Positions 14,606-35,234 of a DNA stretch of 54,509 nucleotides are shown piece by piece (positions within the stretch are counted from its first letter, which is position 1; every line of letters starts with the position of its first letter). The notes beneath the pieces are model-generated. The model ran no database searches. It saw only the letters and a program-made list of their open reading frames with translations, and was not told the origin of the DNA. The position numbers and the translations under genes are program-made. This stretch comes from a virus (lineage: Duplodnaviria; Caudoviricetes), in IMG/VR virus record IMGVR_UViG_3300025617_000962, positions 1 through 54,509 of that record, one strand, 5' to 3'.

Positions 14606-16912
14606 ATGTCAAATGGAACAATGATCGTCAAGCGTGACGGTACAAAAGAACACCTCAACATTGATAAAATTCACAAAGTAGTAGAACATGCATGTGAAGG
14701 TTTAGCAGGTGTTAGTAGTAGTCAAATTGAAATGAATGCAAATATTCAATTCTATGACGGTATGAGTACAAATGAAATCCAAGAAATATTAGTACGTAGC
14801 GCAAATGATCTTATTTCATTAGATGCACCAAATTATCAATTTGCAGCAGCAAGACTGCTGAGTTATGGTGTTAACAAGATGGTGTTCGGCGAGTACAACG
14901 CAATTACACTGCAACACAATATTGATAAAAATATCGAACGTGGTGTATATGATGCAGAAATTTTAGAAAAATATACAGCTGAAGAGATTGCCACATTAGA
15001 CGGTTATATCCGTCACAAGCGTGATGAAAACTTTACCTATGCAGGACTACGTCAAGTGGTTGACAAATACCTTGTACAGGATCGTTCATCAGGCGAAATC
15101 TTCGAGACTCCCCAGTTCATGTACATGATGATTGCAGCAACACTATTTGCTAACTATCCATCAGAAACACGTATGCACTATGTAAGGAGATATTATGATG
15201 CGACCTCACTTTTTAAAGTCAATATCCCAACGCCAGTCATGGCAGGAGTCAGAACGCCTGTGCGACAGTTTGCTAGTTGCGTCCTTGTTGATAGTGACGA
15301 CACCCTTGATAGTATCTTCGCTAGTGATATGTCGATTGGTAGATACACTGCACAGCGAGCGGGTATCGGCATCAATGCGGGACGCATCAGAGGCGTCAAC
15401 AGCAGAATCAGAGGCGGAGAAGTAGCACACACAGGTATTGTTCCGTTTCTTAAGAAGTTTGAAAGCACAGTACGTTGCTGTACACAGAATGGTGTACGTG
15501 GCGGCAGTGCTACTGTACACTTCCCGTTTTGGCATCAAGAAATTGAAGACATCCTTGTGCTAAAGAACAACAAAGGCACAGAAGACAACCGTGTGCGCAA
15601 ATTGGACTATTCAATCCAGCTAAACAAAACAATGTATGAAAGACTACTAACTGGCGGCGATATCACTCTTTTCTCACCACATGATGTTCCGGGTCTATAC
15701 GATGCATACTTTGGCGATCCAGCAGTGTTCCAAGAGCTTTATGAAAAGTACGAACGTGCTACAAGCATCAAGAAAAAGTCTGTGCCAGCAATGGAATTGT
15801 TTTCAGCACTAATCAAAGAACGTGCAGAAACAGGACGTATGTATATCATGAATGTTGATCATGCTAACACACACAGTAGCTTCAAAGACACTGTATACAT
15901 GAGCAACTTGTGTCAAGAGATTACACTACCAACTAAGCCACTTAATCATATTGATGATGAAGAAGGTGAAATTGCTCTGTGTATTCTAAGTGCTATTAAC
16001 GTAGGATTAATTAAAAACATTGATGACTTAGAAGATCTATGTGATCTTGCTGTTCGTGCGTTAGAAGAAATTATTGATTATCAGCGTTACCCAATTGCAG
16101 CAGCAGAACGTTCAACCAAAGCTCGTCGTAGTTTAGGTGTAGGATATATTGGACTTGCGCATTACCTTGCTAAGAATCACGTACAATATGATAACCCACA
16201 AGCATGGAAACTTGTACATGACCTAACAGAAGCTTTCCAATATTACTTGCTCAAAGCATCAAACAATCTTGCTAAAGAGCGTGGTGCATGCGAGTACTTC
16301 AATCGTACTAAATACTCAGACGGTATCCTTCCAATTGATACATATAAAACGGATGTTGATACTATTGTAGCAAATGAGTTAAATTATGATTGGGATAGTT
16401 TACGCAGCGACATCAAGGAACACGGCCTCAGGCACTCAACGTTGTCCGCACAAATGCCATCGGAGAGCAGTTCCGTTGTGTCGAACGCAACAAACGGAAT
16501 CGAACCACCTAGAGGTTACTTGTCCGTTAAGAAGTCAAAGAAAGGGCCTCTTAAACAGATTGTTCCACAATATCAGAGCCTTAAGGCGCACTACACCTTG
16601 TTGTGGGACATGCCTAGCAACGAAGGTTATATCAACGTAGTTGCAGTAATGCAGAAGTTCTTTGATCAAGGTATCTCAGGCAACTGGAGTTACAACCCAA
16701 CACACTTCCCAGATAACGAAGTGCCAATGAGTAAGATGATTAATGACTTGTTGACAACTTACAAAATGGGTTGGAAAACATCTTACTACCAAAACACTTA
16801 TGATTATAAGACTGATCCAAGTGAATTAGAAGATGACAAGCCGGAACAAGCATTAGCACCAAGCACGGTCGATATGAGTGACGAAGAAGCTTGTGACAGT
16901 TGCGCAATTTAA
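14606..16912 (+). CDS. nrdA: ribonucleotide reductase class Ia alpha subunit
   Basis: ATP cone (VKRDG), FASCVL, SNLCQEI and a C-terminal CDSC. Confidence 0.97.
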   Translation: MSNGTMIVKRDGTKEHLNIDKIHKVVEHACEGLAGVSSSQIEMNANIQFYDGMSTNEIQEILVRSANDLISLDAPNYQFAAARLLSYGVNKMVFGEYNAITLQHNIDKNIERGVYDAEILEKYTAEEIATLDGYIRHKRDENFTYAGLRQVVDKYLVQDRSSGEIFETPQFMYMMIAATLFANYPSETRMHYVRRYYDATSLFKVNIPTPVMAGVRTPVRQFASCVLVDSDDTLDSIFASDMSIGRYTAQRAGIGINAGRIRGVNSRIRGGEVAHTGIVPFLKKFESTVRCCTQNGVRGGSATVHFPFWHQEIEDILVLKNNKGTEDNRVRKLDYSIQLNKTMYERLLTGGDITLFSPHDVPGLYDAYFGDPAVFQELYEKYERATSIKKKSVPAMELFSALIKERAETGRMYIMNVDHANTHSSFKDTVYMSNLCQEITLPTKPLNHIDDEEGEIALCILSAINVGLIKNIDDLEDLCDLAVRALEEIIDYQRYPIAAAERSTKARRSLGVGYIGLAHYLAKNHVQYDNPQAWKLVHDLTEAFQYYLLKASNNLAKERGACEYFNRTKYSDGILPIDTYKTDVDTIVANELNYDWDSLRSDIKEHGLRHSTLSAQMPSESSSVVSNATNGIEPPRGYLSVKKSKKGPLKQIVPQYQSLKAHYTLLWDMPSNEGYINVVAVMQKFFDQGISGNWSYNPTHFPDNEVPMSKMINDLLTTYKMGWKTSYYQNTYDYKTDPSELEDDKPEQALAPSTVDMSDEEACDSCAI
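15195..15425 (+). CDS. candidate nested gene in the +1 frame of nrdA (76 aa, one hydrophobic segment)
   Basis: TAAGGAG-N5-ATG is formed by AGG AGA Arg codons of nrdA. Confidence 0.5.
   Translation: MMRPHFLKSISQRQSWQESERLCDSLLVASLLIVTTPLIVSSLVICRLVDTLHSERVSASMRDASEASTAESEAEK
16386..16640 (+). CDS. candidate nested Cys-rich gene in the +1 frame of nrdA (84 aa)
   Basis: Open frame with CPHKC, CP and CCGTC; atypical nrdA codons across the overlap; weak SD. Confidence 0.35.
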   Translation: MIGIVYAATSRNTASGTQRCPHKCHRRAVPLCRTQQTESNHLEVTCPLRSQRKGLLNRLFHNIRALRRTTPCCGTCLATKVIST

Positions 16913-16976
16913 AAATAGCGGTTGACTTTAATAGTTAACCGTTATATACTATATAAACAGATACAGAGGAAGTACA

Positions 16977-18080
16977 ATGGCAAAGACCGTATTCAATAAA
17001 GAAAAAGTAGACTTTACTAAACAAGACATGTTTTTTGGTGAAGATCAAAACACACAGCGTTACGACACGTTTAAGTTTCCTGTGTTCGATAAACTTAACC
17101 AAACCATGTTAGGTTACTTTTGGCGTCCAGAAGAAGTGAGTCTGCAGAAAGATCGTGCTGACTTTGCCAACTTCCGTCCAGAGCAGAAGCATATTTTTAC
17201 TGCCAATTTGAAATATCAAACACTACTTGACAGTGTCCAAGGACGTGGTCCATGCCTAGCGTTTTTGCCGCATGTTTCACTTCCTGAACTAGAAGGGTGT
17301 ATTGTTACTTGGGACTTCTTTGAAACAATCCACTCGCGTAGCTACACACATATTATGAAGAACGTGTATGCTGACCCTGCAGAAGTGTTTGACACTATTC
17401 TAGATGATGAAAAGATTATTGCTCGTGCAACAAGTGTTACCAAGCACTATGATGCATTTACAGAAGCAGCAGACGCTTACACACACCGCGGCGAAGGCAG
17501 CATGCGTGATGTTAAAAAGAAACTGTATCTTGCAATGATGACTGTAAACATTCTTGAAGGCTTGCGTTTTTATGTAAGTTTTGCATGTACGTTTGGCTTT
17601 GGCGAACTGAAGCTAATGGAAGGATCAGCTAAGATTATTTCATTGATTGCTCGTGATGAAGCACAGCACTTGGCTCTCAGCACACACATATTGAAGTTGT
17701 GGGCACAAGGCAAAGACGATCCAGAAATGGCAAGTATTGCTAAAGAGTGTGAAGAAGAAGTGTACGAGCTATGGCGTGAATGCGTAGCAGAAGAAAAAGA
17801 TTGGGCAGAGTATTTGTTCAAAGACGGTTCGATGATTGGTCTTAATACTCAATTGCTTAACCAATATGTAGAGTACATTGCTAACCGTCGATTGAAAGCA
17901 CTTGGATTGCAGTCAATCTTCGATGCCCCAGTAAACACCAATCCACTACCGTGGACACAGCACTGGTTGTCAAGTTCAGGCTTGCAGGTGGCGCCGCAGG
18001 AAACAGAGGTCGAGTCCTATGTGATCGGTGGTATCAAACAAGATGTATCAACTGATAGTTTAAAAGGATTTAGTCTATGA
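16977..18080 (+). CDS. nrdB: ribonucleotide reductase beta subunit
   Basis: FWRPEE, DSVQGR, ETIHSRSY, EGLRFY, RDEAQH, PQETE. Confidence 0.97.
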   Translation: MAKTVFNKEKVDFTKQDMFFGEDQNTQRYDTFKFPVFDKLNQTMLGYFWRPEEVSLQKDRADFANFRPEQKHIFTANLKYQTLLDSVQGRGPCLAFLPHVSLPELEGCIVTWDFFETIHSRSYTHIMKNVYADPAEVFDTILDDEKIIARATSVTKHYDAFTEAADAYTHRGEGSMRDVKKKLYLAMMTVNILEGLRFYVSFACTFGFGELKLMEGSAKIISLIARDEAQHLALSTHILKLWAQGKDDPEMASIAKECEEEVYELWRECVAEEKDWAEYLFKDGSMIGLNTQLLNQYVEYIANRRLKALGLQSIFDAPVNTNPLPWTQHWLSSSGLQVAPQETEVESYVIGGIKQDVSTDSLKGFSL

Positions 18081-18328
18081 TACAGATTTGGGGTAAAGCA
18101 CAGTGTCCGCATTGTGATGCAGCAAAAAGATTTTGTGAGCAAAACGAATATAACTTTGAGTATCGTCAGCTTGATGTTGACTTTACTCGCGAAGAAGTTC
18201 TTGAACACTTTCCAGGTGCGAGAACATTTCCACAGATTGTAGTCAACGGTACAAAGATCGGCGGCTGGGATAAACTTAAAACATACATCGAAGAAACTAA
18301 TTACAACGGCACAGGATATACTTTATGA
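18077..18328 (+). CDS. glutaredoxin
   Basis: CPHC, TFPQI and IGG motifs. Confidence 0.92.
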   Translation: MIQIWGKAQCPHCDAAKRFCEQNEYNFEYRQLDVDFTREEVLEHFPGARTFPQIVVNGTKIGGWDKLKTYIEETNYNGTGYTL

Positions 18329-18615
18329 TTATCGAAACACCTTACAAGGCACAAGACACTGTTACACTAAAAACAACAGCAGGCGAAGAAATTATCGGAC
18401 GTTTTGTAGAAGAAGATGATAAAACTATCACACTGCAAAAGCCGATGGCTATCATGGCTACACAACAAGGAATTGGACTAGGGCCATTTACCTTTACAAT
18501 TAATCCAGATGCAAAAGTTGCAATTAACAAAGGCGCACTACTTCTAGTACACAAGACTGATGGCGAAATGGCAAAGCAATATGTGTCTAGTACCAGTAGT
18601 ATACAAATGGCATAA
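18325..18615 (+). CDS. Sm-like fold protein
   Basis: VTLKTTAGEEIIGR...ITLQKP resembles the Sm1 motif. Confidence 0.55.
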   Translation: MIIETPYKAQDTVTLKTTAGEEIIGRFVEEDDKTITLQKPMAIMATQQGIGLGPFTFTINPDAKVAINKGALLLVHKTDGEMAKQYVSSTSSIQMA

Positions 18616-18659
18616 AACCTCGGATAAATATATTATATTATAATATACGAGGAAGATAA

Positions 18660-19745
18660 ATGTCAATAGCTGGCGCAAATATATTTGAAGAATCAACAAC
18701 AGAAGGTGTAGGTCAAACTACAGTAAATCATACTGATGTTGATACTCATCCAGGTGGCTCGCATCAAGATCATATTCATATTGACCATGACCTAGCGCAT
18801 CAAGCATGTCTAGCAGAAATAGCAAGTTTGTTTGAAGACATTCAAGCAGACTTGCGCATTATTACAGACAGAGGCGATACTAGAGCTAAGGGTATTTACA
18901 CACGTCAAGCAGATACAATTGTACCAAATGCTGCTAATATTGCAGCCGCAGCCGCACAGTACGTTAACTTGAAAGACTCGGGTATGTTGGATATGATTAA
19001 TGCTGAAATCGGCAATCCAACTAACCTAGGCAATACTAGTACTGCTAACTATAATGCAATACGCAACTCAAGCAACACTACAGGCGGCTTTAGGGGTGGC
19101 AGTGCTGCTACTGCACAAAGTCCGGGTTACGGCGGCGGCGCCACTACAGCTATTGTAGGCGAAGATGGTAATACATATTACGAAGGCACTGTTCCGTTTG
19201 ATCAAGTTACTACTGCGTCCGGCACAGGCGAAGGCAATGTTACCTATGGTAACCAAGGCGGCAAACGAAACTTGCCAATACAATCAGAACTTATGAATAT
19301 ACTTAAAACTGCTGCTGCGGCAGCAGGAGTAAATGTTCTTATAACCAGTGGCGGACAAGTTCCTAAAAGCGAAGGCGGCGTTGACGGACGTAACAGAACT
19401 GGGTCAAACAGACACGACAAAGGCTATGCAGCTGATGTTAGATTAACTGATGGTGACGGCACTAGACTGTATACATCAAATCCAGAACAGTTAGCAGTTA
19501 TGTTAAAGTTTGCAGAAGAATGTAAAAACGCAGGAGCAACTGCTATAGGAATGGGCAATGGCTACATGAGCAACGGTAATGTACACGTAGACATTGCGTG
19601 GAAAGGTCAACAAGCTGGCGTAATCAGCGGCATACTTTCAAATAGATACTGGGGTGGTGGTTCAAGTGCAGGATTAAAAACCAAAACTGATAATGCTCCG
19701 CAGTATCTATCATCACTAATGGCACCAAGGGATAACACAGCATAA
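18660..19745 (+). CDS. virion protein with C-terminal peptidase M15-like domain
   Basis: ITSG...SNRHDKGYAAD...HVDI zinc ligands; late promoter at 18625. Confidence 0.7.
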   Translation: MSIAGANIFEESTTEGVGQTTVNHTDVDTHPGGSHQDHIHIDHDLAHQACLAEIASLFEDIQADLRIITDRGDTRAKGIYTRQADTIVPNAANIAAAAAQYVNLKDSGMLDMINAEIGNPTNLGNTSTANYNAIRNSSNTTGGFRGGSAATAQSPGYGGGATTAIVGEDGNTYYEGTVPFDQVTTASGTGEGNVTYGNQGGKRNLPIQSELMNILKTAAAAAGVNVLITSGGQVPKSEGGVDGRNRTGSNRHDKGYAADVRLTDGDGTRLYTSNPEQLAVMLKFAEECKNAGATAIGMGNGYMSNGNVHVDIAWKGQQAGVISGILSNRYWGGGSSAGLKTKTDNAPQYLSSLMAPRDNTA

Positions 19746-20647
19746 TGGCAGGCAACGGCACATCAGCACCATATAAGCATATAGATATGACTCCGGAATA
19801 CAACCGGATCATTACAGCACTAACAGGAATACGCGACGATATTAGATTGTTACGCACCCTACAAGAAGATCCAGAGTCAGGCATTGTAACCAACGGAGTA
19901 ATGAACGACTTTGCACGAGCAGCACTAGCAGTTAGTATGAGTACAGCCGGCAGTAATACAGCATCAGCAGTTGCTAGTGCAATTCAAAATAAGACAGTTG
20001 CTCTTAATGGCAGTGGTGTTGCCGAACCCACTGGCGATAGTGCATCTAATCTAGCAGCAGAAAGAGCAGAAATACTTGGAGCACTAGGCGTACAAGAAGA
20101 TCCTAAAGATTTAAAAACACTAATAAGAATAAGCGGACTATACTATTGGGAAGCCGCAGGTACAGCTGGACCTGACGATGGTCTGCGTGGCTCAACTACA
20201 CAAGTAACTCCGTTTGCTCAAGGAGAGTTACTAGGTTTTGACAACGAAGTCACTGGCCAAATAACAGCAGGAGAACCAGCTGGACCGCCTAACGCAATTC
20301 CAAATCCAAGCAAGCCACGCAAACGTTGGCCGTTTGCAAGACCTCCTGGAGAAACTGCATCACAAATAGCAAGTCCTACAGCAGACTTAGTCGATCCTGC
20401 AACAGGCGATGTTTTACCAAAATCTGTAGAAGATCAACAGGCTGAAGCCAAGTCAGCTGATACTCCGCCACCCGCAGCTACATATGGTATTCCTAGTGAC
20501 TTCCCAGATATTACACTTGCACCAGGCGAACAAGTTTCTTCCACTGCAAAAGACGCAGACGGAAATTATGTTTCGTATGTGGTAACAAGCACAGGTGTTG
20601 ATGAAGACGGATATTCCTTTACTTCGACACGTAGAATTGAGTTATAG
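19745..20647 (+). CDS. hypothetical, probable baseplate-associated protein
   Basis: TAATG-coupled; N-terminal motif shared with the 18660 protein. Confidence 0.65.
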   Translation: MAGNGTSAPYKHIDMTPEYNRIITALTGIRDDIRLLRTLQEDPESGIVTNGVMNDFARAALAVSMSTAGSNTASAVASAIQNKTVALNGSGVAEPTGDSASNLAAERAEILGALGVQEDPKDLKTLIRISGLYYWEAAGTAGPDDGLRGSTTQVTPFAQGELLGFDNEVTGQITAGEPAGPPNAIPNPSKPRKRWPFARPPGETASQIASPTADLVDPATGDVLPKSVEDQQAEAKSADTPPPAATYGIPSDFPDITLAPGEQVSSTAKDADGNYVSYVVTSTGVDEDGYSFTSTRRIEL

Positions 20648-20656
20648 GAGAATTAG

Positions 20657-21409: not shown

Positions 21410-21412
21410 TTA

Positions 21413-22105: not shown

Positions 22106-22163
22106 CATAACTTAATTCTTATGCTATATTAGTAATATAATAAGGCAAACAAAGAGGCAAGTT

Positions 22164-23099: not shown

Positions 23100-23260
23100 A
23101 TCCAACACCACGCGAAACAGATGACGAATCAAAAAAAGCAGTAGAAGAATTTCTAGCCAAAGGCGGCAAGATTCAACAGTGCGAGCCATTTGCACGAACA
23201 GAAAACCTAGAAGTCAAAGGCGGCTTTTACGGACGCAAGCCAAAGAAGAAAGAAGAATGA
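23096..23260 (+). CDS. SutA-like small protein (possible RNAP binder)
   Basis: VEEFLAKGGKIQ motif. Confidence 0.5.
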   Translation: MNPTPRETDDESKKAVEEFLAKGGKIQQCEPFARTENLEVKGGFYGRKPKKKEE

Positions 23261-23562
23261 ACGTAAGTGAAGGCGATAAAGCCGTAATAGTATTTTCAAT
23301 CAATCCAAGTAACGTAGGCAGAATTGTTAATGTAGCAGAATATATTGGCAAGTTTGAAAAGGACGAACAGTTTGAAGCACATGGAATGACCTGCACCTGC
23401 CTCGTTCACGATCACTACTGGTGGATTGAAGCAGAGGATCTAAACATACAGTTAGGCCCATCGCCTAAAGCATACATTGCTGACAGTTGGCTACGCAAAC
23501 TTGTAGACCCTAACAAAAAAGTAACAACCAAAGCAGAAAAAGAACTTGACATGTTTGGCTAA
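23257..23562 (+). CDS. hypothetical protein
   Basis: ATGA-coupled start at 23257. Confidence 0.65.
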   Translation: MNVSEGDKAVIVFSINPSNVGRIVNVAEYIGKFEKDEQFEAHGMTCTCLVHDHYWWIEAEDLNIQLGPSPKAYIADSWLRKLVDPNKKVTTKAEKELDMFG

Positions 23563-23576
23563 ACGTGCTATAAATA
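23546..23576 (+). promoter_or_regulatory. dual sigma70/late promoter for tmRNA
   Basis: TTGACA-N17-TATAAATA. Confidence 0.7.
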
Positions 23577-23581
23577 TACTT

Positions 23582-23853
23582 GTAATGTTGAAGCAATTTG
23601 ACGACTGAACTGGACCGCGGGGCAGTACCGCGCATCTCCACCAAATTTACTCTGTAGAGTAAAAACTGATAATTTACTTTGTAGAGTAAATTTGATGGGG
23701 ATGAACTAGGATCGACAGGCAGGATAGATGCGTGGAGTTACCGGGATGTAAGCGCCGTTACCGCGAACAAACTTTATAATTGCAAACGCAAATATAGCAT
23801 TAGCAGCCTAAGGGCAGCTACGGGGTAGCTAGACCCTGTTACCAAACATAGCA
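23582..23853 (+). ncRNA. ssrA: circularly permuted two-piece tmRNA, tag (A)ANANIALAA
   Basis: Acceptor piece GCGGGGCAGTACCGC...TCTCCACCA ends at 23643; coding piece starts GGGGATGAA..GGATCGAC at 23697; tag ORF 23782-23811. Outer ends are approximate. Confidence 0.92.
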
Positions 23854-23881
23854 AGAAAGCACCTTCGGGTGCTTTCTTTTT
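23854..23881 (+). terminator. intrinsic terminator
   Basis: AGAAAGCACC-TTCG-GGTGCTTTCT followed by a T-run. Confidence 0.85.
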
Positions 23882-23971
23882 CACTGCTACATTATAGCGC
23901 ACTTAATATTATTGACTTCTTGGCATAACCATGCTAAATTAATATACACACAGAGACAAAAGGATTTTGTT

Positions 23972-24334
23972 ATGAACACCACACCAAAGCCCATTGGATG
24001 GGTAACTACTATTTCAACACTAGCTGCTATTCCCAAAGACATGTGGGACAGCGTAATGACAGTTGAAAAATCACCACTACGCAACTTAGACCCTATGGTA
24101 GCACATATGATCTTCCAGAGTCTATTCTTTATCTGGAGCGGCTTGTTTGCTGTGATGATTGGCAGCTATATAGCGTTTGGCATTAGTGCAGTATTTCATA
24201 TGGTATTAATCAGTGGAGTTACAATCACAGCAATGACATTCCGTCAAGCAGAAAACAATCCAGAATCAATCAACCGACTTATCAAATCCGGTCAGAAATA
24301 CAACGGCCGAGCAGCAAATGGAGAACATGTATAA
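23972..24334 (+). CDS. membrane protein
   Basis: Two hydrophobic segments; promoter TTGACT at 23912. Confidence 0.7.
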   Translation: MNTTPKPIGWVTTISTLAAIPKDMWDSVMTVEKSPLRNLDPMVAHMIFQSLFFIWSGLFAVMIGSYIAFGISAVFHMVLISGVTITAMTFRQAENNPESINRLIKSGQKYNGRAANGEHV

Positions 24335-24486: not shown

Positions 24487-24704
24487 AACCAAACAACAAC
24501 TTTGAACTTACAGTAAGAGACATTGAGGTTATAGAATCAGCACTAAGAGCAAAGGCTGGACGCAGAGGTTTGGCTATTGCTCAAGGCGAAGTATCAGAAC
24601 AATCTCGTGCTGAAATGCATGAGATACAAGAACTACTGGGCAGAATACACAATCAAAAGAATTGGTACAAGCCCAAAGACGACCGCTTTCAAGGTGGCGG
24701 ATAA
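24483..24704 (+). CDS. small hypothetical protein
   Basis: FELTVRDIEVIESALR...LLGRIHNQK; resembles small alphaproteobacterial hypotheticals (from recall). Confidence 0.65.
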   Translation: MKPNNNFELTVRDIEVIESALRAKAGRRGLAIAQGEVSEQSRAEMHEIQELLGRIHNQKNWYKPKDDRFQGGG

Positions 24705-24726
24705 CCATATACGAAAGGAACATAAT

Positions 24727-25164
24727 ATGGCAAGACTACTAACGACTATTGGACTATTAATGGCAATGGCAACAAGTGCCTTTGCAGAAGATGTTACACT
24801 AGAAATGTGGAACAAAGACCCAGACGACAAAAAACGCAAAATGGTTTTCTCGCAAGAGATTGTAACCATTGATGTGGGTGAAAGTGTAACTTGGTTAGCA
24901 ACAGACAAAGGTCACAATGTACAAATGATTGATGGACCAGACGGTGTTAAACTTCCGGGTAAATCAAAAGTATCAAAAGATATAACACTGTCATTTGACA
25001 CACCAGGTGTGTATGTATATGTGTGTACACCACACGCAACAATGGGTATGATTGGTATTGTTGTTGTAGGTGAACTTACACAAGAAGGTGTCGATGCTAT
25101 CAAAGACGCTAAAGTGCGTGGCAAGTCAAAGAAAAAACTAAAAGAACTATTGGCTAATCTGTAA
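24727..25164 (+). CDS. pseudoazurin (periplasmic type-1 copper protein)
   Basis: Signal peptide, GHNV and CTPHATMGM copper ligands. Confidence 0.88.
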   Translation: MARLLTTIGLLMAMATSAFAEDVTLEMWNKDPDDKKRKMVFSQEIVTIDVGESVTWLATDKGHNVQMIDGPDGVKLPGKSKVSKDITLSFDTPGVYVYVCTPHATMGMIGIVVVGELTQEGVDAIKDAKVRGKSKKKLKELLANL

Positions 25165-26161: not shown

Positions 26162-26187
26162 AAGGGCGGTGGCAACATCGCCCTTTA
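26162..26187 (+). terminator. intrinsic terminator
   Basis: AAGGGCGGTG-GCAA-CATCGCCCTT. Confidence 0.7.
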
Positions 26188-26230
26188 TTCTTGATAAATA
26201 AACATAGTACATAACTAAGAGGGATGTTTT

Positions 26231-26704: not shown

Positions 26705-26726
26705 TGCATTATAACGGAGGGCTAAA

Positions 26727-27340: not shown

Positions 27341-27344
27341 CCAC

Positions 27345-27372
27345 AAAAGGATCCGCAAGGGTCCTTTTTTTT
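27345..27372 (+). terminator. intrinsic terminator
   Basis: AAAAGGATCC-GCAA-GGGTCCTTTT followed by a T-run. Confidence 0.8.
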
Positions 27373-27406
27373 ATAACTACATTATAAACCAAAAGGAGAC
27401 GCTGTA

Positions 27407-29191
27407 ATGAGTCATGAACAAGATAAAGCTAATGCTGAAGCAAAAAAACAGCAGCAGCAGAATGAAAAGAATGCCAAGTCAAACCAAAAGCACCAAGCTG
27501 AAATTGACAAGCAAAATGCTGACGCTGCTAAAGCTAACGCAGACAAAGAAGCAGAAGCTGCAAAGCAAAAGCAAGCACAAGCTGAAGCAGACGCTGATAA
27601 AGCACAAGCTGATTTAGACGCAGCTCATGCAGCAGAAAAAGAAGCAGCTGATAATTACGATGCAGCACAAGCTGAAGTACAAAAGTCAGCAGACATGGTA
27701 CAGCAAGTATCTAAGCCGCAGTACAATATTGAAGTAGTAGATGAAGTTGCAGTTCAAACTTCAGGTTCTGTGGGAAACGACAACGCAGGAGCAAGTGGTA
27801 GTGCAGGCGCACATGCAGGTTACGAAGCAGGTGCAAGTGCAGGCTATGAAGTAACAGACACAAGTGTTGCAGCAGGCGCAGAAGTGCATGCAAAAGTAGA
27901 AGCAGGCGCAGAAGCAAGCGGCGAAGCACATGCTAAACAAGAGATTGTACCTGGTGTAGATGCAGTAGCAGACGCAAGTGGTTCAGCAGAAGCACACGCA
28001 AGTGCAGAAGCAGAAGCACACGTTGAAGGTAGTGCAGGATGGGACGGCAGTGATGCAACAGCAGCAGTAAATGCAGGAGCAAGTGCAAGAGCAGAAGCTG
28101 GTGCAAGTGGATCAGTAGATGCAAGTGCGGGACTTGAAACACCGTTAGGAGATGTAAAAGTAGATGCAGGCGCTGAAGGTCAAGCAAACGTACACGCAGA
28201 AGCATATGCAGAAGCAGGCGCACATGCAAGTGTAGGCGAGCATGGTGTAGATGTAGGCGCAGGAGCAATTGCTGGTGCAGGAGTAGGCGCTGATGCAAGC
28301 GGTTCAGCACACTTGGGTGGTGCAGAAGTAAGCGGCAGCGCAGGAGCAAGTATTGGCGCACAAGTTGGCGCACAAGGTTCAGCACATGCAACATACGAAG
28401 ATGACACAATTTCGTTTGGCATTGACGGTGAGGCAGCATTATTAGTTGGATTAGACGTTGATGTAAATGTAGATGTTGACATTGGTCCGCTAATTGACGG
28501 TGCAAATGCAATGATGCATGCAGGCAAGAGCATGGAAGAAGCCTGTGATTATATCACTGGTGAAATTGACAAAGCACAAGAAGATGCAATTAAAGTTGCA
28601 GACGATGCACTTAAAGTTGCAAACCAAACAGCAAAAGTTGCTAACGATGCATATAACGAAACTAAAAAAGCAACAAAGGCAGCAGAAGATGCAGTTAACG
28701 ATTGTGCCAATGCAGTAACAGATGCAGCCAACCAAGTTGCCAACTGGACTGTATCGAGTGCAAATGCATTGGCAAATTCACAGGCAGCACAGCAGACTAT
28801 TAATGCCTGCAACAGTGCTATCAAAGCTTGTGACAGTGCTATCAACGAATGCAACAAAGCAATCAACAGTGCAGAAAAAGCAATCACAGATGCAGCCAAC
28901 GCAGCAGCAAAGGCAGCAGAAGATGCAGCTAATGCAACTGCAAAAGCAGGCAAGGATGCTTGGAAAGCAACCAAGAAGTTTTTCTCAGACGTGCGTCTAA
29001 AAGAGAATGTTGAATTTGTAGGCACAGTGGCAGGTATCAACACATACACCTACAACTACTTGGGATCAAGCGTAGAACACACGGGTGTTATGGCACAAGA
29101 ACTACTGGATACAGATTATGCAGCAGCAGTAAGTGTACATACAAATGGCTACTATCAAGTAGATTATAACAAGTTGCCAAAGCTACACTAA
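27407..29191 (+). CDS. Ala/Gly-rich fibrous protein with C-terminal peptidase S74 autocleaving chaperone
   Basis: SDVRLKENV...GVMAQEL...YYQVDY; flanking coiled coils. Confidence 0.75.
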   Translation: MSHEQDKANAEAKKQQQQNEKNAKSNQKHQAEIDKQNADAAKANADKEAEAAKQKQAQAEADADKAQADLDAAHAAEKEAADNYDAAQAEVQKSADMVQQVSKPQYNIEVVDEVAVQTSGSVGNDNAGASGSAGAHAGYEAGASAGYEVTDTSVAAGAEVHAKVEAGAEASGEAHAKQEIVPGVDAVADASGSAEAHASAEAEAHVEGSAGWDGSDATAAVNAGASARAEAGASGSVDASAGLETPLGDVKVDAGAEGQANVHAEAYAEAGAHASVGEHGVDVGAGAIAGAGVGADASGSAHLGGAEVSGSAGASIGAQVGAQGSAHATYEDDTISFGIDGEAALLVGLDVDVNVDVDIGPLIDGANAMMHAGKSMEEACDYITGEIDKAQEDAIKVADDALKVANQTAKVANDAYNETKKATKAAEDAVNDCANAVTDAANQVANWTVSSANALANSQAAQQTINACNSAIKACDSAINECNKAINSAEKAITDAANAAAKAAEDAANATAKAGKDAWKATKKFFSDVRLKENVEFVGTVAGINTYTYNYLGSSVEHTGVMAQELLDTDYAAAVSVHTNGYYQVDYNKLPKLH

Positions 29192-29202
29192 GGAAATAAA
29201 CT

Positions 29203-29493
29203 ATGGCTAAACCAGTCCAAGTCAGTGAAGACACAGAATTACAAATAAGTTTAAAAACTGCTGGAGCAATCCTGTTTGCTGTTGTCTCTGCTGCTGGACT
29301 GGTTTTCCATGTTGAAAGTAATATGGATGATGTGCAAGGTGAACTTGAAAAACACACCATGCATATTCAAACACTTGCACAAAAAATCAACAGTCCACAA
29401 GTACAAGAAGCACATACAGAATTGGCATTATTAAAGCTAAGAGTGCAACAGCTTGAACAAGAATTACAAGAACTTAGATTGCAAAGGCAATAA
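29203..29493 (+). CDS. single-TM coiled-coil protein
   Basis: TM segment AGAILFAVVSAAGLVF followed by heptads. Confidence 0.65.
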   Translation: MAKPVQVSEDTELQISLKTAGAILFAVVSAAGLVFHVESNMDDVQGELEKHTMHIQTLAQKINSPQVQEAHTELALLKLRVQQLEQELQELRLQRQ

Positions 29494-29496
29494 CAG

Positions 29497-30072
29497 ATGC
29501 AAGTAGAAACACTCTACAAATGCGAATACATCACTGGTAAATTTGAAACAATAGACATACAATCTATTACTGATATGGTACTTGAAAAGTATCATGCAAA
29601 CAAAACTATGTCTAAACATGCAGCAAGTATACGCAATGAAGACATACGCATAGAATTTAATTCAGAAATACAAAAGTTAGCAAAAGAATTGTGCGCCGCG
29701 TGGCATGAATATTCTGGCAATGAAATAGAACTATGCTGGAACAGTAGCATGACAGACACTGATCCTAACACAGCAGCATGGGCAGTAGTACACAGTCGTA
29801 GCGAAATGACCAATTTACACAGCCATGAAAGCTCAGAGAACTATTCTGAAGGCGCACATGTAAGTGCAGCATTTTGGGTACAGTGTCCCAAAGACAGCGG
29901 CAACTTTGTATTTCAATACAAGCCAAATCCTTACATAGTTGAACAGCACGATATAGAACCGCAACAAGGACATTATGCTATGTTTGACAGTACTATGCCG
30001 CATTTTGTAACAAAGAACTGCACAGATGAGCTACGTATAGTAATCAGCATGAATTTTAAGTTAAAAGGTTGA
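29497..30072 (+). CDS. 2OG-Fe(II) oxygenase
   Basis: HSH...H.V...RIVISMN. Confidence 0.8.
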   Translation: MQVETLYKCEYITGKFETIDIQSITDMVLEKYHANKTMSKHAASIRNEDIRIEFNSEIQKLAKELCAAWHEYSGNEIELCWNSSMTDTDPNTAAWAVVHSRSEMTNLHSHESSENYSEGAHVSAAFWVQCPKDSGNFVFQYKPNPYIVEQHDIEPQQGHYAMFDSTMPHFVTKNCTDELRIVISMNFKLKG

Positions 30073-30127
30073 CAGCTCACTAAACTCCTGCTATACTGTA
30101 TAGACAGTAACAAAGCAGGAGTTTTTT
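30069..30127 (+). promoter_or_regulatory. sigma70-type promoter overlapping an SD-sequestering hairpin/T-run
   Basis: TTGACA-N17-TATACT; AAACTCCTGCT pairs with AGCAGGAGTTT. Confidence 0.7.
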
Positions 30128-30577
30128 ATGACTATGTCATTAGTAAGAGGCATGAGCACTCTTAATACTAAAAAACCTAAAGCAAAGAAACTAAACAAGA
30201 AAGACATGGATCGTCTTCAACTTGAATGGCGTCAGTACAACAAGCGTATGCGCCGCAATAACAATCATAGCCTACAGTTTAACGAGTTTGATGATTATGT
30301 TGCATACACCCGTGGGCAGTATAAACCTAAACGCAAGGAAGATAAGGAGTTTAAACCCTATGCGCAAACCCAACCGAATGTCCGCGACACAACGACATAT
30401 CGAAGCCTCAAAACGTCAAACGAAATCCCAGGCTACGCCCCCAAAAAAGAAGTCCAAACCTACTCAGGAGAAAGACAACTCCTCGGAATAGCGACGATGC
30501 ACAAATCAAATATGGTTCCTATCTTTGCAGATAACAAAGAAGAAGCCAAAGAAATTGCGCAGATGCGCCGCAACTAA
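30128..30577 (+). CDS. conserved-type T4-like hypothetical protein
   Basis: C-terminal GIATMHKSNMVP. Confidence 0.75.
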   Translation: MTMSLVRGMSTLNTKKPKAKKLNKKDMDRLQLEWRQYNKRMRRNNNHSLQFNEFDDYVAYTRGQYKPKRKEDKEFKPYAQTQPNVRDTTTYRSLKTSNEIPGYAPKKEVQTYSGERQLLGIATMHKSNMVPIFADNKEEAKEIAQMRRN

Positions 30578-30591
30578 TCAAAGGCAACACA

Positions 30592-31110
30592 ATGAAAAAT
30601 TATATTGAGGCAGTACTCAAAGGCATTCTTATTGGCAGCATTGCAGTGTTTATTGCAAGCACAGCACAAGCAAAAGGGTTGTTCACAGCAGACGATGATC
30701 CGCAAGCATGGTGCTTGGCACAGAACATCTACTACGAAGCTCGCGGCAGTAGTTTAGCGGACGCAGCAGCAGTATCTGATGTAGTTATCAATCGTGTACA
30801 AGACACACGTTATCCTAATACAATTTGCGCAGTAGTACAGCAAGGTAAGAAAACATCTTCTGGTGCTATGAAACGCAATGCGTGTCAGTTCTCGTGGTAC
30901 TGCGATGGCAAGAGCGACTGGCCCACAGACACAGACAGCTGGGTTAAGGCACAAGAACTTGCACTGTCTATGATACTTTATGGTAAATATCGTGGCATTA
31001 CAGAAGGTGCAACACACTATCATGCACACTATGTAAATCCTCGCTGGGCACGTAGCTTCGATTTAACAGGCACAATCGGCGATCATAAGTTTTATCGTTG
31101 GAATCAGTAA
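30592..31110 (+). CDS. SleB/Hydrolase_2 cell wall hydrolase
   Basis: CLAQNIYYEARG, CQFSWYCDG, GATHYHA, IGDHKFY. Confidence 0.9.
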   Translation: MKNYIEAVLKGILIGSIAVFIASTAQAKGLFTADDDPQAWCLAQNIYYEARGSSLADAAAVSDVVINRVQDTRYPNTICAVVQQGKKTSSGAMKRNACQFSWYCDGKSDWPTDTDSWVKAQELALSMILYGKYRGITEGATHYHAHYVNPRWARSFDLTGTIGDHKFYRWNQ

Positions 31111-31152
31111 TAATAGTGCTTAATATACCAGACAGAATGGGTTAAATAATAT

Positions 31153-33456
31153 ATGATATTTGGAATACTTACTCTTATCACTGCTCTATGTATCAGTGCA
31201 GTGGCAATATATTACTCTGTCGCAGGATTGGTAGCAATCTTTGCGGCAGCAGCTCTACCCATTATGATTATGGGCGGCACATTAGAAATAGCAAAACTTG
31301 TAACCGCAGTGTGGTTACACAAGTACTGGAAGCAAGCTACATGGTGGCTTAAAACGTATCTAAGCGTGGCTGTAGTGGTGCTTATGTTTATTACAAGCAT
31401 GGGCATCTTTGGCTTTCTAAGCAAAGCACACATTGAACAAACAAGTGCCAGTGAAGAAAGTGTAGCAAGAGTAGAAAGTATTACAGATGAAATTGCTAGA
31501 CAGAACGCTATTGTTACTCGTGCAAACACACGCATTGCACAGTTGGAAAACAGTGAAACAGGCGCTGACGCAACTATACAAGCACAAATTGACAAAGAGC
31601 AAACTCGTATTGATCGTGCATTTGAACGTATCCAACCTGCTATACAACAGCAGAATCAAATTATTTCAGATGCAAGAACAGATGATGCAACACGCACAAA
31701 GCCATATGAAGATCAACTTGCTAGTATACAAGCAGAAGTGCTAAGACTAGAGTCTAGTGCAAAAGAATACGAAACAAGTATCACAGAACTTGACACAGAC
31801 AACAGTGCAGTAGAACCATTGCTTGCACAGATTGCCAGTCTTGAAGAAGAAATCATTCGTGTAACCAATCAAATCAATAGTGGCGAGCAACAACAGGTTA
31901 GAGCAGGACAAGCAATTATAGGCGTGTCAAGTGATGGCTTGTTTGGCGGCAACACTAGAACAGCACTAGCAGCTTGGGTAAGTGGACAGCGTGAGCGCAT
32001 CACACAAATACAAGGTGAAGTAGCACAGGTGCGCAAGGATGCAACAGCTACAGTTGATGCAGAGCGTATACGTTTAGCAGATGTAGTCAAAGACATTCGC
32101 ACAGTACAAATTCCTGCACTCAAAGATCGCGAGCTTGCAATGCTTGCTAAGATTGACGAAGTGCGTCAAACAGAGTCCCCTGTTATTAAAACAGCAAGAG
32201 ATGAAATACAGAGACTACGTGAAAGTGCAGAGTCACAAGTAGCACAGTCACAAACACTAATTGAACGTCTACGCAGTCAACTGGGCGATGTAGGCAATGC
32301 ACAAGAACTTGAAGCAGACATAGACGAACAACAAAATCGTATTAGAACTGCTAACACAGAAATTGACACACTCACAGAAGAAAAGATTAAACTAGAAGCA
32401 GAATATCGCAAACTAGAAGCAGAAGTAGGACCTATCAAATACATTGCTGAATTCGTATATGGCGAAGCAGCAGATGGCAACATGCTGGAAGAAGCTGTGC
32501 GTTGGGTAATAATTATTATTATCTTTGTGTTTGATCCACTCGCAGTCCTATTATTAATAGCCGCACAGTATACTTTTGAGTTCCGCAAGAAAGAACTTGA
32601 AGATGATGACGGTGAACGTCTTCGGCTCGAGAGAGCTGAATACGAACGAGCAAGAGCACAAGCAATAGTTGACAATCCTGGAGTTACATTTGATAATCCT
32701 CTACCTGAGGATAGTAGCAATACAGATGTCAGTGCGACTGCCGAACAAAAGGAAGAAGTAGATGACGTCATTAATAGACCTGATGATGGGAAACAAGATC
32801 AAGACACCGCCGACGGAAGTGGAACAGACGCAAGAGATAGTTCCAGCAAAGCCAGCGATGACATCAGAACAGTTGAAAGAGATGATCAACCATCTGGAGC
32901 CGGACACGATGGAGGAGACGATCCCGACAGAGTGGAACAACCCGGAAGAGGAGAGTTAGATGAATACATACAGTCATATATTACAGCAGATAGCACTACA
33001 GCAGATGATGCTAGCAGAGACATTGTATCAGAAACAGATACTGCCGTGGCAGATGCAGATGATACAGAATTGGAACCAACAGAAATACAAGCTGATGAGC
33101 CTCCAAAAAAAGTAGGCGTTATTCCTGATACCAAGAACAGAATGTTCTACCCAGAAGAGCTCCAAAAACCTAAAAAAAAAGTAGAGTCAGAGTTACCGGA
33201 AGAATTAAATCCAAATAGCAAATACTATAGTAAACAGGAGCAAGACGATTCTTGGGTGACTGCCCGGGCAGATTGGGAAGCTAGAAATCCAACTGAAGAC
33301 AGAGCAGCGTGGCGACATGCTTTTGAATCTGGAGAAATAAACTCACTTCCATGGGAAACAGCAGTAATTGATGATAACTACAATACACAAGAAGGTTATC
33401 GGCAAAATGCAGAGCAAAGCGACAATACATTGTTTAACAAACTATCTAACAAATAG
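31153..33456 (+). CDS. membrane-anchored long coiled-coil protein with acidic tail
   Basis: N-terminal TM segments; DGLFGGNTRTAL peptidoglycan-binding-like motif; FVFDPLA TM. Confidence 0.75.
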   Translation: MIFGILTLITALCISAVAIYYSVAGLVAIFAAAALPIMIMGGTLEIAKLVTAVWLHKYWKQATWWLKTYLSVAVVVLMFITSMGIFGFLSKAHIEQTSASEESVARVESITDEIARQNAIVTRANTRIAQLENSETGADATIQAQIDKEQTRIDRAFERIQPAIQQQNQIISDARTDDATRTKPYEDQLASIQAEVLRLESSAKEYETSITELDTDNSAVEPLLAQIASLEEEIIRVTNQINSGEQQQVRAGQAIIGVSSDGLFGGNTRTALAAWVSGQRERITQIQGEVAQVRKDATATVDAERIRLADVVKDIRTVQIPALKDRELAMLAKIDEVRQTESPVIKTARDEIQRLRESAESQVAQSQTLIERLRSQLGDVGNAQELEADIDEQQNRIRTANTEIDTLTEEKIKLEAEYRKLEAEVGPIKYIAEFVYGEAADGNMLEEAVRWVIIIIIFVFDPLAVLLLIAAQYTFEFRKKELEDDDGERLRLERAEYERARAQAIVDNPGVTFDNPLPEDSSNTDVSATAEQKEEVDDVINRPDDGKQDQDTADGSGTDARDSSSKASDDIRTVERDDQPSGAGHDGGDDPDRVEQPGRGELDEYIQSYITADSTTADDASRDIVSETDTAVADADDTELEPTEIQADEPPKKVGVIPDTKNRMFYPEELQKPKKKVESELPEELNPNSKYYSKQEQDDSWVTARADWEARNPTEDRAAWRHAFESGEINSLPWETAVIDDNYNTQEGYRQNAEQSDNTLFNKLSNK

Positions 33457-33463
33457 GTCCTAA

Positions 33464-33862
33464 GTGAACAAAATTAATATAGTCACTGCACCAGATATGC
33501 TATTCAACGACAGTCTTCAACTGTTGTTGGTGTATCCTAGCAAGCAGATACAAGATGAACTCCAAAACAACTTTTTAACTAACATAGAAGTAGATGTTAA
33601 TATATACGTTTATGATAAACCTGTGTATGATAAAAAAGAAGTTGAATGGCTGTTAAATGTCTTTAAACAGTGTGACACAACAATAGTAGATATAGATAAT
33701 ACATCACCCTGGGCCAGAGACCTTTTAAGCTATATGATAGCTAAAAACAAGACATATTGGTTGACAAACAGCCAAGATTCAGTATATAATAGTTTAAGTA
33801 ATAATAAAGTTTATAACTTAGATTTTTTGTCTAATATAGGAGATAATTTTGAGACAGAATAA
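33464..33862 (+). CDS. hypothetical phage protein
   Basis: GTG-start ORF in the operon. Confidence 0.7.
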
Positions 33863-34091
33863 TAATCAAGAACGTCGAGGACTGAGTGTCGAAGTGCGCA
33901 ACAACGATGTTAATTTTGCACTACGCAAATTTAAAAAGAAAGTTGCAGAAGACGGTATTTTACAAGAGCTTCGAAATAGAGAATTTTACGAAAAACCTAG
34001 TGTTAAACGTGCAAAGGCAAAAAAAGCTGGACGAGCTCGTTGGCTTAAAAAGCAAGCTAAAGACGATATCAACACAACCCGTAATTTTTAA
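33849..34091 (+). CDS. rpsU: ribosomal protein bS21
   Basis: ALRKFKKKV...[15 protein letters not shown]; AGGAG SD; promoter TTGACA at 33761. Confidence 0.9.
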
Positions 34092-34100
34092 GAGGCTGTA

Positions 34101-35234
34101 ATGCGCATTGATAATGAAGTTCGATTGGATTACAAAGACGTACTAATTCGTCCCAAGCGTAGTACTCTTAAAAGTCGCTCTCAAGTGCGACTTGAGCGTA
34201 AGTTCACATTTCGCAACTATGAGCCGCCGTTTCCACAAAATATCAAAGATGATCACTATGAAGGTATTCCTATTATGGCTGCTAACATGGATGGCGTTGG
34301 TACGTTTGAAATGGCAGACACACTAGGCGCTCAAGGCATCTTTACTTGTCTAGTTAAAACATACACTGCGGAAGAACTTATTGATTATTTCTACGGTGAC
34401 GGACTCAATCGCACAGACTATGTAGCTATGAGCATTGGCACAAGCGAAGCAGACTTTGAAAAGTTGTGTGCTGTGTCTGAGAAGTGCGAAGACAATCTAA
34501 AATACGTGTGTATGGATATTGCAAATGGATATTCAGAACACTTTGCAGATCGAGTACGTGAAGTGCGCAAACGCTTCCCACACATTGTAATCATCGCAGG
34601 TAATGTTGTTACAGGCGAAATGACGGAGGAACTTATTCTTGCTGGAGCCGATATTGTTAAAGTGGGTATTGGCCCTGGTAGTGTTTGTACTACTCGTATT
34701 CAAACTGGGGTGGGATATCCGCAACTGTCAGCAGTTATCGAGTGTGCAGACGCGGCGCACGGTCTTGGCGGACATATCATTGCTGATGGTGGTTGCACTT
34801 GTCCTGGGGACGTGGCTAAAGCCTTTGCAGCTGGCGCTGACTTTGTAATGCTAGGCGGTATGCTAGCAGGACACGACGAAGGCGGTGGCAAAGTAATTAC
34901 AAAAAGTTACCTAACAAACGAATTAAGCGAAAAATCAGGATACACTGAACAATATGTAGAAACAAAAGAGTTTGTGCAGTTCTACGGTATGAGTAGTGAT
35001 GCCGCAAACACAAAGCATTTTGGCGGATTGAAAGATTATCGTTCGTCAGAAGGTAGAGAAGTACTTGTTCCCTATCGCGGAGCAGTGGCTACTACCGTAC
35101 AAGACTTGCTCGGAGGTATTCGATCAACTTGTACATACGCAGGCGCTATGAAGCTCAAGCAACTTAGCAAATGCACAACCTTTGTTCGTTGTACACAGCA
35201 ATTTAATGCTGTTTATGCGAATAATAATAAATAA
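34101..35234 (+). CDS. guaC: GMP reductase
   Basis: [44 protein letters not shown]. Confidence 0.95.

Follow-up and report, generated by a model that had tools for sequence, protein, structure and literature searches.

Probable overprinted genes nested in the +1 frame of nrdA and guaC of marine phages

Results

Open +1 frames inside nrdA and guaC

In a 54.5 kb virus record from IMG/VR (IMGVR_UViG_3300025617_000962; 54,509 nucleotides, referred to in full as the window, to which all positions below belong), three open reading frames (ORFs) nested out of frame inside enzyme genes are, judging from the comparison of homologous sequences, probably genuine overprinted genes. Two of them lie in nrdA, the gene for the large subunit of class Ia ribonucleotide reductase, at 15195-15425 (ORF-1) and at 16386-16640 (ORF-2, with a core that extends to 16583), and the third lies in guaC, the gene for GMP reductase, at 34639-34848 (the guaC ORF). 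Across the aligned homologs we find selection against stop codons that is specific to frame and region, maintenance of the start codons, compensating pairs of neighbouring codons, and a joint loss of these features in minority lineages; translation, membrane insertion and metal binding of the nested products we infer. The original prediction for this window had been broader, proposing that at least six ORFs in the +1 frame of four genes, most of them behind an internal Shine-Dalgarno (SD) motif, belong to a systematic hidden layer of small genes. All six named ORFs are indeed present, each in the +1 frame relative to its host gene, and a seventh that was absent from the list can be added; the start minus the host start is always 3k+1 and the ORF always lies wholly inside the host gene, as is also the case in phage P-HM2. 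The two host genes of main concern and the nested ORFs are as follows.

14606-16912, + strand: nrdA, class Ia ribonucleotide reductase large subunit (Pfam Ribonuc_red_lgC at 8e-133, Ribonuc_red_lgN and ATP-cone), host of two nested ORFs
34101-35234, + strand: guaC, GMP reductase (Pfam IMPDH/GMPR domain at 1.7e-69), host of one nested ORF
15195-15425, + strand: ORF-1, 76 amino acids (aa) from ATG, in nrdA; about 121 aa in cyanophages; ATGs at 15195 and 15198
16386-16640, + strand: ORF-2, 84 aa from ATG, in nrdA; 65 aa in most relatives
34639-34848, + strand: guaC ORF, 69 aa, TTG start in the window; relatives have ATG or GTG at 34642
30360-30491, + strand: 43 aa from ATG, an internal start of the TTG ORF 30222-30491 (89 aa), in gene 30128-30577
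32762-32959, + strand: 65 aa, in gene 31153-33456
32960-33115, + strand: 51 aa, in gene 31153-33456
31487-31744, + strand: 85 aa, in gene 31153-33456, the seventh +1 ORF

Depletion of +1 stop codons among homologs

The homologs come from IMG/VR, with 80 loci for nrdA and another 80 for the neighbourhood of gene 31153, in which gene 30128 and guaC are included; they yielded codon alignments of 78 (nrdA), 40 (30128), 69 (31153) and 52 (guaC) distinct sequences. A second nrdA set, obtained with a cyanophage NrdA query, contains 83 sequences that are 64-73% identical to the window, and a second guaC set contains 59 sequences, none of which is in the first. The NrdA relatives are 72-89% identical in aa sequence in IMG/VR and about 70% in cyanophages. 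Since four-fold degenerate sites differ at a median of 0.49-0.56, close to the saturation level of 0.65-0.68, shared ancestry explains little of what follows, and phylogenetic inertia was rejected on this ground and on the ground that matched control columns do carry stops. These matched columns are the Leu, Ile and Val columns before a purine at which the window itself has no stop. Outside the candidates, stop-making codons occupy 30-33% of the homolog cells in such columns, compared with 5-6% inside nrdA 15195-15425 and the guaC ORF, and 19% in nrdA 16386-16640, which spans the column of the usual ORF-2 stop at 16580.

Over positions 15198-15365 of ORF-1, the +1 frame holds 12 stops in the first nrdA set, where 229 are expected, leaving 71/77 homologs stop-free, and not a single one in the cyanophage-like second set, where 127 are expected. 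All 83 sequences of that second set are free of +1 stops over the whole of 15195-15425, and the depleted region there reaches to about 15505. Fully open ORF-1 frames occur in 48/77 homologs, against 0.6 expected from synonymous resampling. For ORF-2, the stretch 16388-16577 has 31 stops observed and 286 expected in the first set (66/77 stop-free), and 12 observed and 163 expected in the second (75/83 stop-free). The 65-codon ORF starting from the conserved ATG is intact in 60/77 homologs, and six more have the 84-codon form; in the window the usual stop at 16581-16583 is lost, through CTT instead of the CTA or TTA found before A in 64/78 sequences, so that ORF-2 runs 19 codons beyond its end in most relatives. 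The guaC ORF is similar, with 2 stops observed and 152 expected over 34644-34809 in the first set (46/47 stop-free) and 12 and 206 in the second (53/59 stop-free); it is fully open in 18/47 homologs, where 0.4 are expected.

To place these numbers, the four host genes were found to contain 33 alternative-frame ORFs of at least 50 codons, among which the three supported ORFs have the lowest ratios of observed to expected stops (0.14, 0.31 and 0.33), while the remaining 30, antisense frames included, fall between 0.50 and 1.45. Two scans for cold runs, defined as an observed/expected ratio below 0.2 with at least two expected stops per homolog and both made with the window excluded from the counts, gave a consistent picture. 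The first, over the +1 and +2 frames of 13 genes, found cold runs at the three sites and a short run in the acidic part of 31153. The second, over the five alternative frames of 28 genes with up to 45 homologs each, found only three, all in the +1 frame.

15191-15422: cold run in nrdA, +1 frame
16382-16631 (also delimited as 16382-16580): cold run in nrdA, +1 frame
34641-34845: cold run in guaC, +1 frame

Gene-wide ratios in these 28 genes lie between 0.63 and 1.26 in all five frames, and 26/28 have no cold run in any frame. Within nrdA, 15-codon windows are mostly at 0.5-1.8 wherever the expectation reaches about 0.3 stops per homolog, and the gene-wide ratio is 0.95 in the first set and 1.09 in the second; against this level, the map has two sharp cold regions at 15191-15370 and 16406-16540, with ratios of 0.05-0.18, and the cyanophage-like set has the same two (0.00-0.14). 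In the second guaC set, the cold region covers 34641-34775, with ratios of 0.04-0.07. Other strongly conserved genes, namely nrdB and GroEL, have no cold run, and conserved nrdA columns elsewhere use TTA, CTA and GTA freely.

In enterobacterial and Vibrio nrdA genes (Klebsiella RaK2, Miro, a T4-like coliphage, KVP40 and Cba120), the two segments contain one to five +1 stops, with the exception that the T4-like coliphage has none in the second segment, and Salmonella guaC and three other phage guaC genes have two to four stops in the nested segment. As far as these sequences allow us to judge, the open frames are not forced by the host protein. The search of bacterial and archaeal genomes gave no true cellular nrdA for comparison; the matches were contigs of metagenome-assembled genomes (MAGs), 64-89% identical and assigned to many unrelated phyla, with labels that include Crocinitomicaceae, Rickettsiales, Verrucomicrobiales, Euryarchaeota and Planctomycetota. 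Most likely, these contigs with phage-type nrdA are mis-binned phage DNA. Among 18 full-length MAG-binned copies, 14 are stop-free in the first segment and 11 in the second.

Compensating codon pairs

Whether a host codon closes the +1 frame depends on its neighbour. Outside the segments, A-ending Leu and Val codons are about as frequent before AGR codons for Arg (0.60-0.63) as before CGN codons for the same residue (0.56-0.59). Inside them, A-ending Leu appears in 2/44 cases before AGR and in 98/119 before CGN, and A-ending Val in 0/49 and 23/95, respectively. In guaC column 34725, the same contrast is seen with Ser, where A-ending Leu is found in 0/15 cases before AGY and in 19/33 before TCN. 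Five dicodon columns that we tabulated show many of the allowed pairs and none of the forbidden ones. Phylogenetically independent pairs were counted on a tree made from the remainder of nrdA. There are 14 such pairs at column 16427, with 12.8 switches that avoid a stop and 0 in the opposite direction (p ~2e-4), and at column 15248 the count is 5.9 against 0.3. In these alignments, neighbouring codons switch together in a manner that avoids +1 stops.

A codon-context effect of a different kind was seen for Ile, where ATA is strongly avoided before a purine and common before a pyrimidine across the phage family, in the alignments of nrdA, guaC and 31153 (3/36 vs 12/16 at column 32185; 0/24 vs 13/18 at column 31726). 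This avoidance holds well outside any nested ORF.

Start signals and encoded peptides

The original prediction had placed an SD motif before most of the starts, and this stands for five of the six, where an SD-like motif is present with a spacer of 4-12 nucleotides, and fails for 16386. As background, 42/1456 internal +1-frame start codons (2.9%) have such a motif, compared with 23/52 real genes; the ORFs on the list had been chosen partly by their SD motifs. For the supported ORFs, the motifs are the following.

15183-15189, + strand: SD-like TAAGGAG, 5 nucleotides upstream of the tandem ATGs of ORF-1, within host codons GTA AGG AGA
34625-34629, + strand: SD-like GGAGG, 9 nucleotides upstream of TTG 34639 of the guaC ORF

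At ORF-1, the motif is present in 50/78 sequences of the close set. It is kept through AGG, a rare Arg codon (window usage 4%) that accounts for 53/56 of the Arg codons in this column. At least one of the tandem ATGs is retained in all 78 close-set sequences, the window counted, by a variety of combinations: (ACG,ATG) in 28, (ATG,ATG) in 24, (ATG,ACG) in 17, (ATG,ACT) in 7, and (ATA,ATG) and (ATG,ATT) in one each. The host pair TAC-GAC, which would remove both ATGs, occurs in 0/77 sequences where about 8.7 are expected; for comparison, three further Tyr-Asp columns have it in 9-15% of sequences. On the tree we count 15 and 9 changes of the two ATGs, respectively, and the independent pairs change 0 times in the same direction and 5.3 times in opposite directions. 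A +1 stop is found just upstream, at host column 15182, in 71/78 close-set sequences. The cyanophage-like set lacks this stop, and 38 of its sequences use an ATG at 15180. An ATG-started ORF of at least 50 codons is present in 72/78 sequences of the close set and 84/84 of the cyanophage-like set.

The ORF-1 region contains the most hydrophobic 19-aa windows of the entire +1 translation of nrdA in both sets, with mean Kyte-Doolittle values of 1.65-2.12 in the top two or three windows and a gene median near 0. In the window, its product would consist of a hydrophobic helix and an acidic tail. AlphaFold 2 (AF2) models it as a single long helix with a predicted local distance difference test score (pLDDT) of 88.7, which fits a membrane helix and is weak evidence alone. 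The peptide itself is poorly conserved, with a mean column identity of 36%, W16 as the only invariant and L32 as the only nearly invariant residue, and no conserved Cys in the alignment. From its hydrophobic helix and acidic tail, the product is likely a small membrane protein.

The ATG of ORF-2 is kept in 69/77 sequences of the first set, where 41.5 are expected, and in 73/83 of the second, and a +1 stop lies just upstream, at 16379, in 61/78. The encoded peptide is basic and has conserved Cys residues at +1 codons 16443, 16455, 16479 and 16521, all four invariant among 45 aligned peptides; one is forced by the host codons for Met-Pro, and at three of the four positions the Cys codon depends on minor G-ending Leu or Val codons of the host. 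Pooling 178 nrdA sequences (the two sets and the 18 MAG-binned copies), of which 154 have an intact and 24 a broken ORF-2, these Cys-making G-ending codons are present in 451/456 cases when the ORF is intact and in 12/59 when it is broken, and the ATG in 145/154 and 6/24, respectively, while the NrdA residues are the same in the two groups. A basic peptide with four such Cys may bind metal, conceivably as a small zinc-binding protein.

The guaC ORF begins in one of three ways, with TTG at 34639 or, immediately behind a stop, with ATG or GTG at 34642. One of the two positions holds a start codon in 46/50 sequences of the first set and 56/59 of the second, and GAGG or GGAG occurs within 34620-34634 in 46/50 and 52/59. 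The start codon is found in 98/99 intact guaC ORFs and in 3/7 broken ones. The product has two hydrophobic segments and would thus likely be a small membrane protein.

The host-frame codons across the overlaps, which had been described as atypical for this genome, are so in fact and are kept in relatives, AGG in 53/56 cases for Arg and GCG in 62/70 for Ala, and TCC, TCG, GGG, GTG and TTG within 16436-16565 are conserved likewise.

Occurrence in cultured phages

The cultured-phage collection contained no close DNA-level relative of the window, the best matches to nrdAB being pelagiphage HTVC008M and T4-like cyanophages at about 67% nucleotide identity. At the protein level, a tblastn search with the ORF-2 peptide matched 396 records, 385 of which cover at least 80% of the query, and all 467 records matched by the 121-aa form of ORF-1 do so; as tblastn can run through a stop, these coverages are suggestive rather than strict. 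By these searches, both nrdA ORFs occur in about 390-470 cultured cyanophage genomes. All of these matches fall within nrdA, in phages of Synechococcus, Prochlorococcus or Pelagibacter or in 'marine' phages, and laboratory models such as P-HM2, P-SSM4 and Syn19 are among them. The nrdA of P-HM2 contains both in its +1 frame, as simple ATG-started ORFs of 121 aa (ORF-1) and 65 aa (ORF-2). Four annotated cultured-phage records were inspected and neither ORF is annotated in any of them, and the titles and abstracts searched do not mention genes nested in nrdA or guaC of phages. On balance, we lean towards the view that essentially all T4-like cyanophages, some pelagiphages and a large group of uncultured big marine phages carry unannotated overprinted genes in the catalytic cores of cell-derived enzymes, with two such genes in nrdA and a third in guaC for the uncultured group.

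ORF length and the remaining candidates

Shuffling codons within the window's own genes had been suggested as a control, and by this measure the number of +1 ORFs is barely above chance. With 60 ORF-called genes of at least 100 aa (from a greedy longest-ORF caller, whose set includes a few spurious minus-strand ORFs) and 300 shuffles each of codon order and of synonymous codons, we count 36 +1 ORFs of at least 40 aa, where 30-31 are expected, 12 of at least 60 aa, where 7.4-8.8 are expected, and 6 of at least 80 aa, where 1.7-2.8 are expected (P 0.013-0.02). The +2 frame is almost closed, with 2 ORFs observed and 4-5 expected. ORF length was therefore rejected as evidence, as shuffled controls yield nearly equal numbers, and since +1 is intrinsically the most open alternative frame in the window, it is expected that all six ORFs should be found in it.

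The support that the homologs lend to the three ORFs above, through avoided stops and maintained starts, does not extend to the other named candidates. The ORF at 30222-30491 (+ strand) in gene 30128-30577 is open in 2/35 homologs, has no cold run and was judged to be chance; its shorter 43-aa version from 30360, preceded by TAAGGAG, is open with its start in 3/32, where 0.6 are expected, and only in the closest relatives. The ORF at 31487-31744 (+ strand) is open in 0/67 homologs and was likewise judged to be chance. The C-terminal half of 31153-33456, which holds the ORFs at 32762 and 32960, is acidic and variable, and the host sequence there is of low complexity with 17% T; few stops and many SD-like strings are expected in such an acidic purine-rich stretch. 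Only 5 homologs align over 32762-32959, and five relatives keep the ATG and open frame of 32960, with an aligned host identity of 3-24% among the homologs listed. The short run of the first scan in this gene is cold in the +1 frame over 32833-32956 and also in the +2 frame over 32890-32956, and is gone with another sample of homologs. We regard these two ORFs as unsupported rather than refuted, and likely by-products of composition.

The larger claim of a systematic layer is not supported, with such ORFs in only 2 of the 28 testable genes: as far as genes could be tested on the alignments, a hidden layer across the genome is not seen. The scan covered genes with enough relatives, and 34 genes of the window had too few.

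Discussion

If the three ORFs are read as we propose, ribosomes would most likely initiate within the nrdA and guaC mRNAs, at internal start codons of which two follow an SD-like motif, and would continue in the +1 frame over about 57-120 codons. The products would be two small hydrophobic and probably membrane-inserted peptides, from ORF-1 and the guaC ORF, and, from ORF-2, a basic peptide with four conserved Cys.

Several observations weigh against this reading. Constraint at synonymous sites, another check suggested for the overlaps, turned out to be weak, with ratios of observed to expected synonymous divergence of 1.07 for ORF-1, 0.88 for ORF-2 (0.75-0.82 in its core) and 1.00 for the guaC ORF; over all candidates the pairwise ratios are 1.07, 0.88, 0.97, 0.94, 1.00, 0.84 and 1.00 of the gene average, without a strong dip, in a measure that is insensitive to a restricted codon alphabet at near-saturated divergence. 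Beyond the stops, the starts, the Cys residues and the hydrophobic character, the encoded sequences are loosely constrained, and for ORF-2, conservation of the +1 peptide does not exceed that of the +2 translation across this stretch (z <2). AF2 finds no confident fold for ORF-2 from 45 sequences (pLDDT 45), and searches of Pfam and PHROGs with the nested peptides gave nothing below E = 0.01. ORF-2 has no SD-like motif ahead of its start. The SD and start position of ORF-1 are not conserved in the cyanophage-like set, where 27/83 sequences lack both tandem ATGs and use the ATG at 15180 instead, and the independent-pair test on the tandem ATGs reaches only p ~0.06. The Fisher tests of the joint loss (P = 2e-49 for the Cys codons and 2e-13 for the ATG) treat related sequences as independent. 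The Ile columns had to be discarded as evidence, given the family-wide avoidance of ATA before purines. Finally, GTA codons for Val are scarce in all three segments, including columns in which they could not create a +1 stop, and A at the third position of four-fold codons (A3) is regionally low in nrdA 15236-15330 and guaC 34641-34800. Some regional codon effect therefore exists, though selection for hydrophobic +1 residues would give the same.

These last points lead to the alternative that fares best, although we consider it unlikely, which is that the absence of +1 stops is a by-product of local codon preferences of the host frame in the most conserved parts of NrdA and GuaC, for instance of T- or C-ending Leu, Ile and Val codons chosen for accurate decoding, with no translation in the +1 frame. 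The host aa identity of 89-97% in the segments, the scarcity of GTA, the low A3 in two of the three segments, the near-normal synonymous divergence and the precedent of a general codon-context effect for Ile ATA all agree with it. However, such preferences do not account for A-ending Leu and Val codons that are common before CGN and TCN and absent before AGR and AGY only inside the runs, with repeated independent switches, nor for the maintenance of start codons, nor for G-ending Cys-making codons that are kept and then lost jointly with the ATG when the frame is broken. ORF-2 avoids stops though A3 is not low there, and nrdB, GroEL and other conserved nrdA columns are without cold runs. Regional codon bias as the whole explanation was thus rejected on the paired codon switches, the start maintenance and the joint loss.

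One could also speculate that ribosomes translating nrdA or guaC shift into the +1 frame and make truncated enzymes with alternative tails. SD-like elements, as in prfB, and tandem AGG codons stimulate frameshifting in E. coli, and an SD-like element together with tandem rare Arg codons (AGG AGA) lies just upstream of ORF-1; the loose constraint on the +1 products is compatible with such tails. Yet most sequences have a +1 stop a few codons upstream of the start, as described above for 15182 and 16379, and the start codons, which a shift would not need, are maintained. No slippery site was noticed in the sequences read, a dedicated search not having been made. Taken together, this makes a frameshift improbable.

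Still less credit can be given to the full hidden layer, in which all six ORFs and many more would be systematic +1 genes of the lineage. The SD-like motifs at five of six starts, the slight excess of long +1 ORFs over the shuffles and the 34 genes with too few relatives speak for it, and against it stand the 26 testable genes without a cold run, the interruption of 30222/30360 and 31487 in most relatives, the purine-rich acidic setting of the motifs at 32762 and 32960, and the part that SD motifs had played in picking the ORFs. Least probable of all is an element at the RNA level, such as a structure or a binding site for a protein or small RNA, which the conserved clusters of rare codons at 15182-15220 and 16436-16565 might suggest, as the constraint is frame-specific with the same trinucleotides allowed in +2, most other synonymous sites vary freely, and Rfam has no match in nrdA or guaC.

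Overprinted genes of the kind proposed here have precedents among phages. Nested out-of-frame genes are textbook knowledge for tiny phages, such as E inside D of phiX174, which, like L of MS2, is a single-gene lysis protein encoded out of frame, and in lambda the o-spanin gene Rz1 is embedded in the +1 frame of the i-spanin gene Rz. To our knowledge, nested genes are hardly known in large phages, and not at all inside metabolic genes borrowed from cells. Like Rz1, the candidates are small same-strand ORFs that a larger phage gene encloses completely, in the +1 frame and with start signals of their own, and like the membrane-associated product of Rz1, those of ORF-1 and the guaC ORF are predicted to associate with membranes. 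Unlike Rz, however, the hosts here are enzymes of cellular origin rather than functional partners; no lipoprotein signal is evident, there is no sequence kinship with Rz1, and we know of no functional link between the nested and the host products. An identity as Rz1-type o-spanins was accordingly rejected, as the host genes are nrdA and guaC and ORF-1 has no conserved Cys. With phiX174 E and MS2 L, the candidates share overprinting in the +1 frame, short peptides, a hydrophobic helix and a loosely constrained sequence. Those phages have tiny genomes under size pressure, whereas here the genome is very large and encodes its own cell-wall hydrolases (Pfam). A role in lysis is neither needed nor indicated by the analysis.

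In bacteria, retapamulin ribosome profiling has revealed out-of-frame internal start sites in genes. Long overlapping genes have been described in Pseudomonas aeruginosa (PMC8850804). The nested phage ORFs resemble such bacterial internal starts and overlaps in being discarded by annotation and in that the case is made from start signals and purifying selection. The difference is that the bacterial cases have the support of ribosome profiling and a narrow conservation, whereas the nested phage ORFs are spread over hundreds of phage genomes and known here from their sequence.

If the proposal is true, the nested products would be made together with nucleotide-supply enzymes and would be among the most widespread unrecognised genes of ocean phages, and even the most conserved segments of cellular enzymes could be overprinted after capture by a virus. 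If the ORFs are translated, hundreds of sequenced cyanophage genomes would contain genes that standard annotation has overlooked, the extreme conservation of these stretches of nrdA and guaC would in part be due to double coding, and work that takes nrdA as a marker or estimates selection from it would have to reckon with a second frame. Cultured phage-host pairs permit a direct test, and a cold-run scan with the reference excluded offers a cheap search for such genes elsewhere.

Further features of the window

The window has a GC content of about 40% and is about 15% complete according to CheckV, which makes it a fragment of a very large phage. Besides nrdA and guaC, Pfam identifies several further enzymes, nrdB and a chaperonin.

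16977-18080: nrdB (Pfam)
35586-37211: GroEL-type chaperonin (Pfam)

The window also encodes a plastocyanin/azurin-like copper protein and a 2-oxoglutarate (2OG)-Fe(II) oxygenase (24577-25164 and 29497-30072; Pfam), which together with the GroEL-type chaperonin, nrdAB and guaC form a set typical of large marine phages.

Two long antisense ORFs were noted, one of 286 aa at 44136-44996 (- strand) inside gene 43048-45348, which exceeded nearly all shuffles in its own frame, and one of 192 aa at 27933-28511 (- strand) inside the tail-fibre-like gene 27407-29191; the hosts of both had too few relatives for the cold-run scan. A 386-aa ORF at 41958-43118 (+ strand) overlaps the start of the 766-aa ORF at 43048-45348 (+ strand) by 71 nucleotides, and owing to this overlap the greedy caller dropped the former and kept short antisense ORFs instead.

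A phage transfer-messenger RNA (tmRNA) of the two-piece, permuted type lies at 23532-23902 (+ strand), in the gap between the ORFs at 23179-23562 and 23912-24334. It scores 104.8 bits with Rfam tmRNA_permuted and 90.5 bits with beta_tmRNA, and its tag peptide is predicted by ARAGORN to be ANANIALAA.

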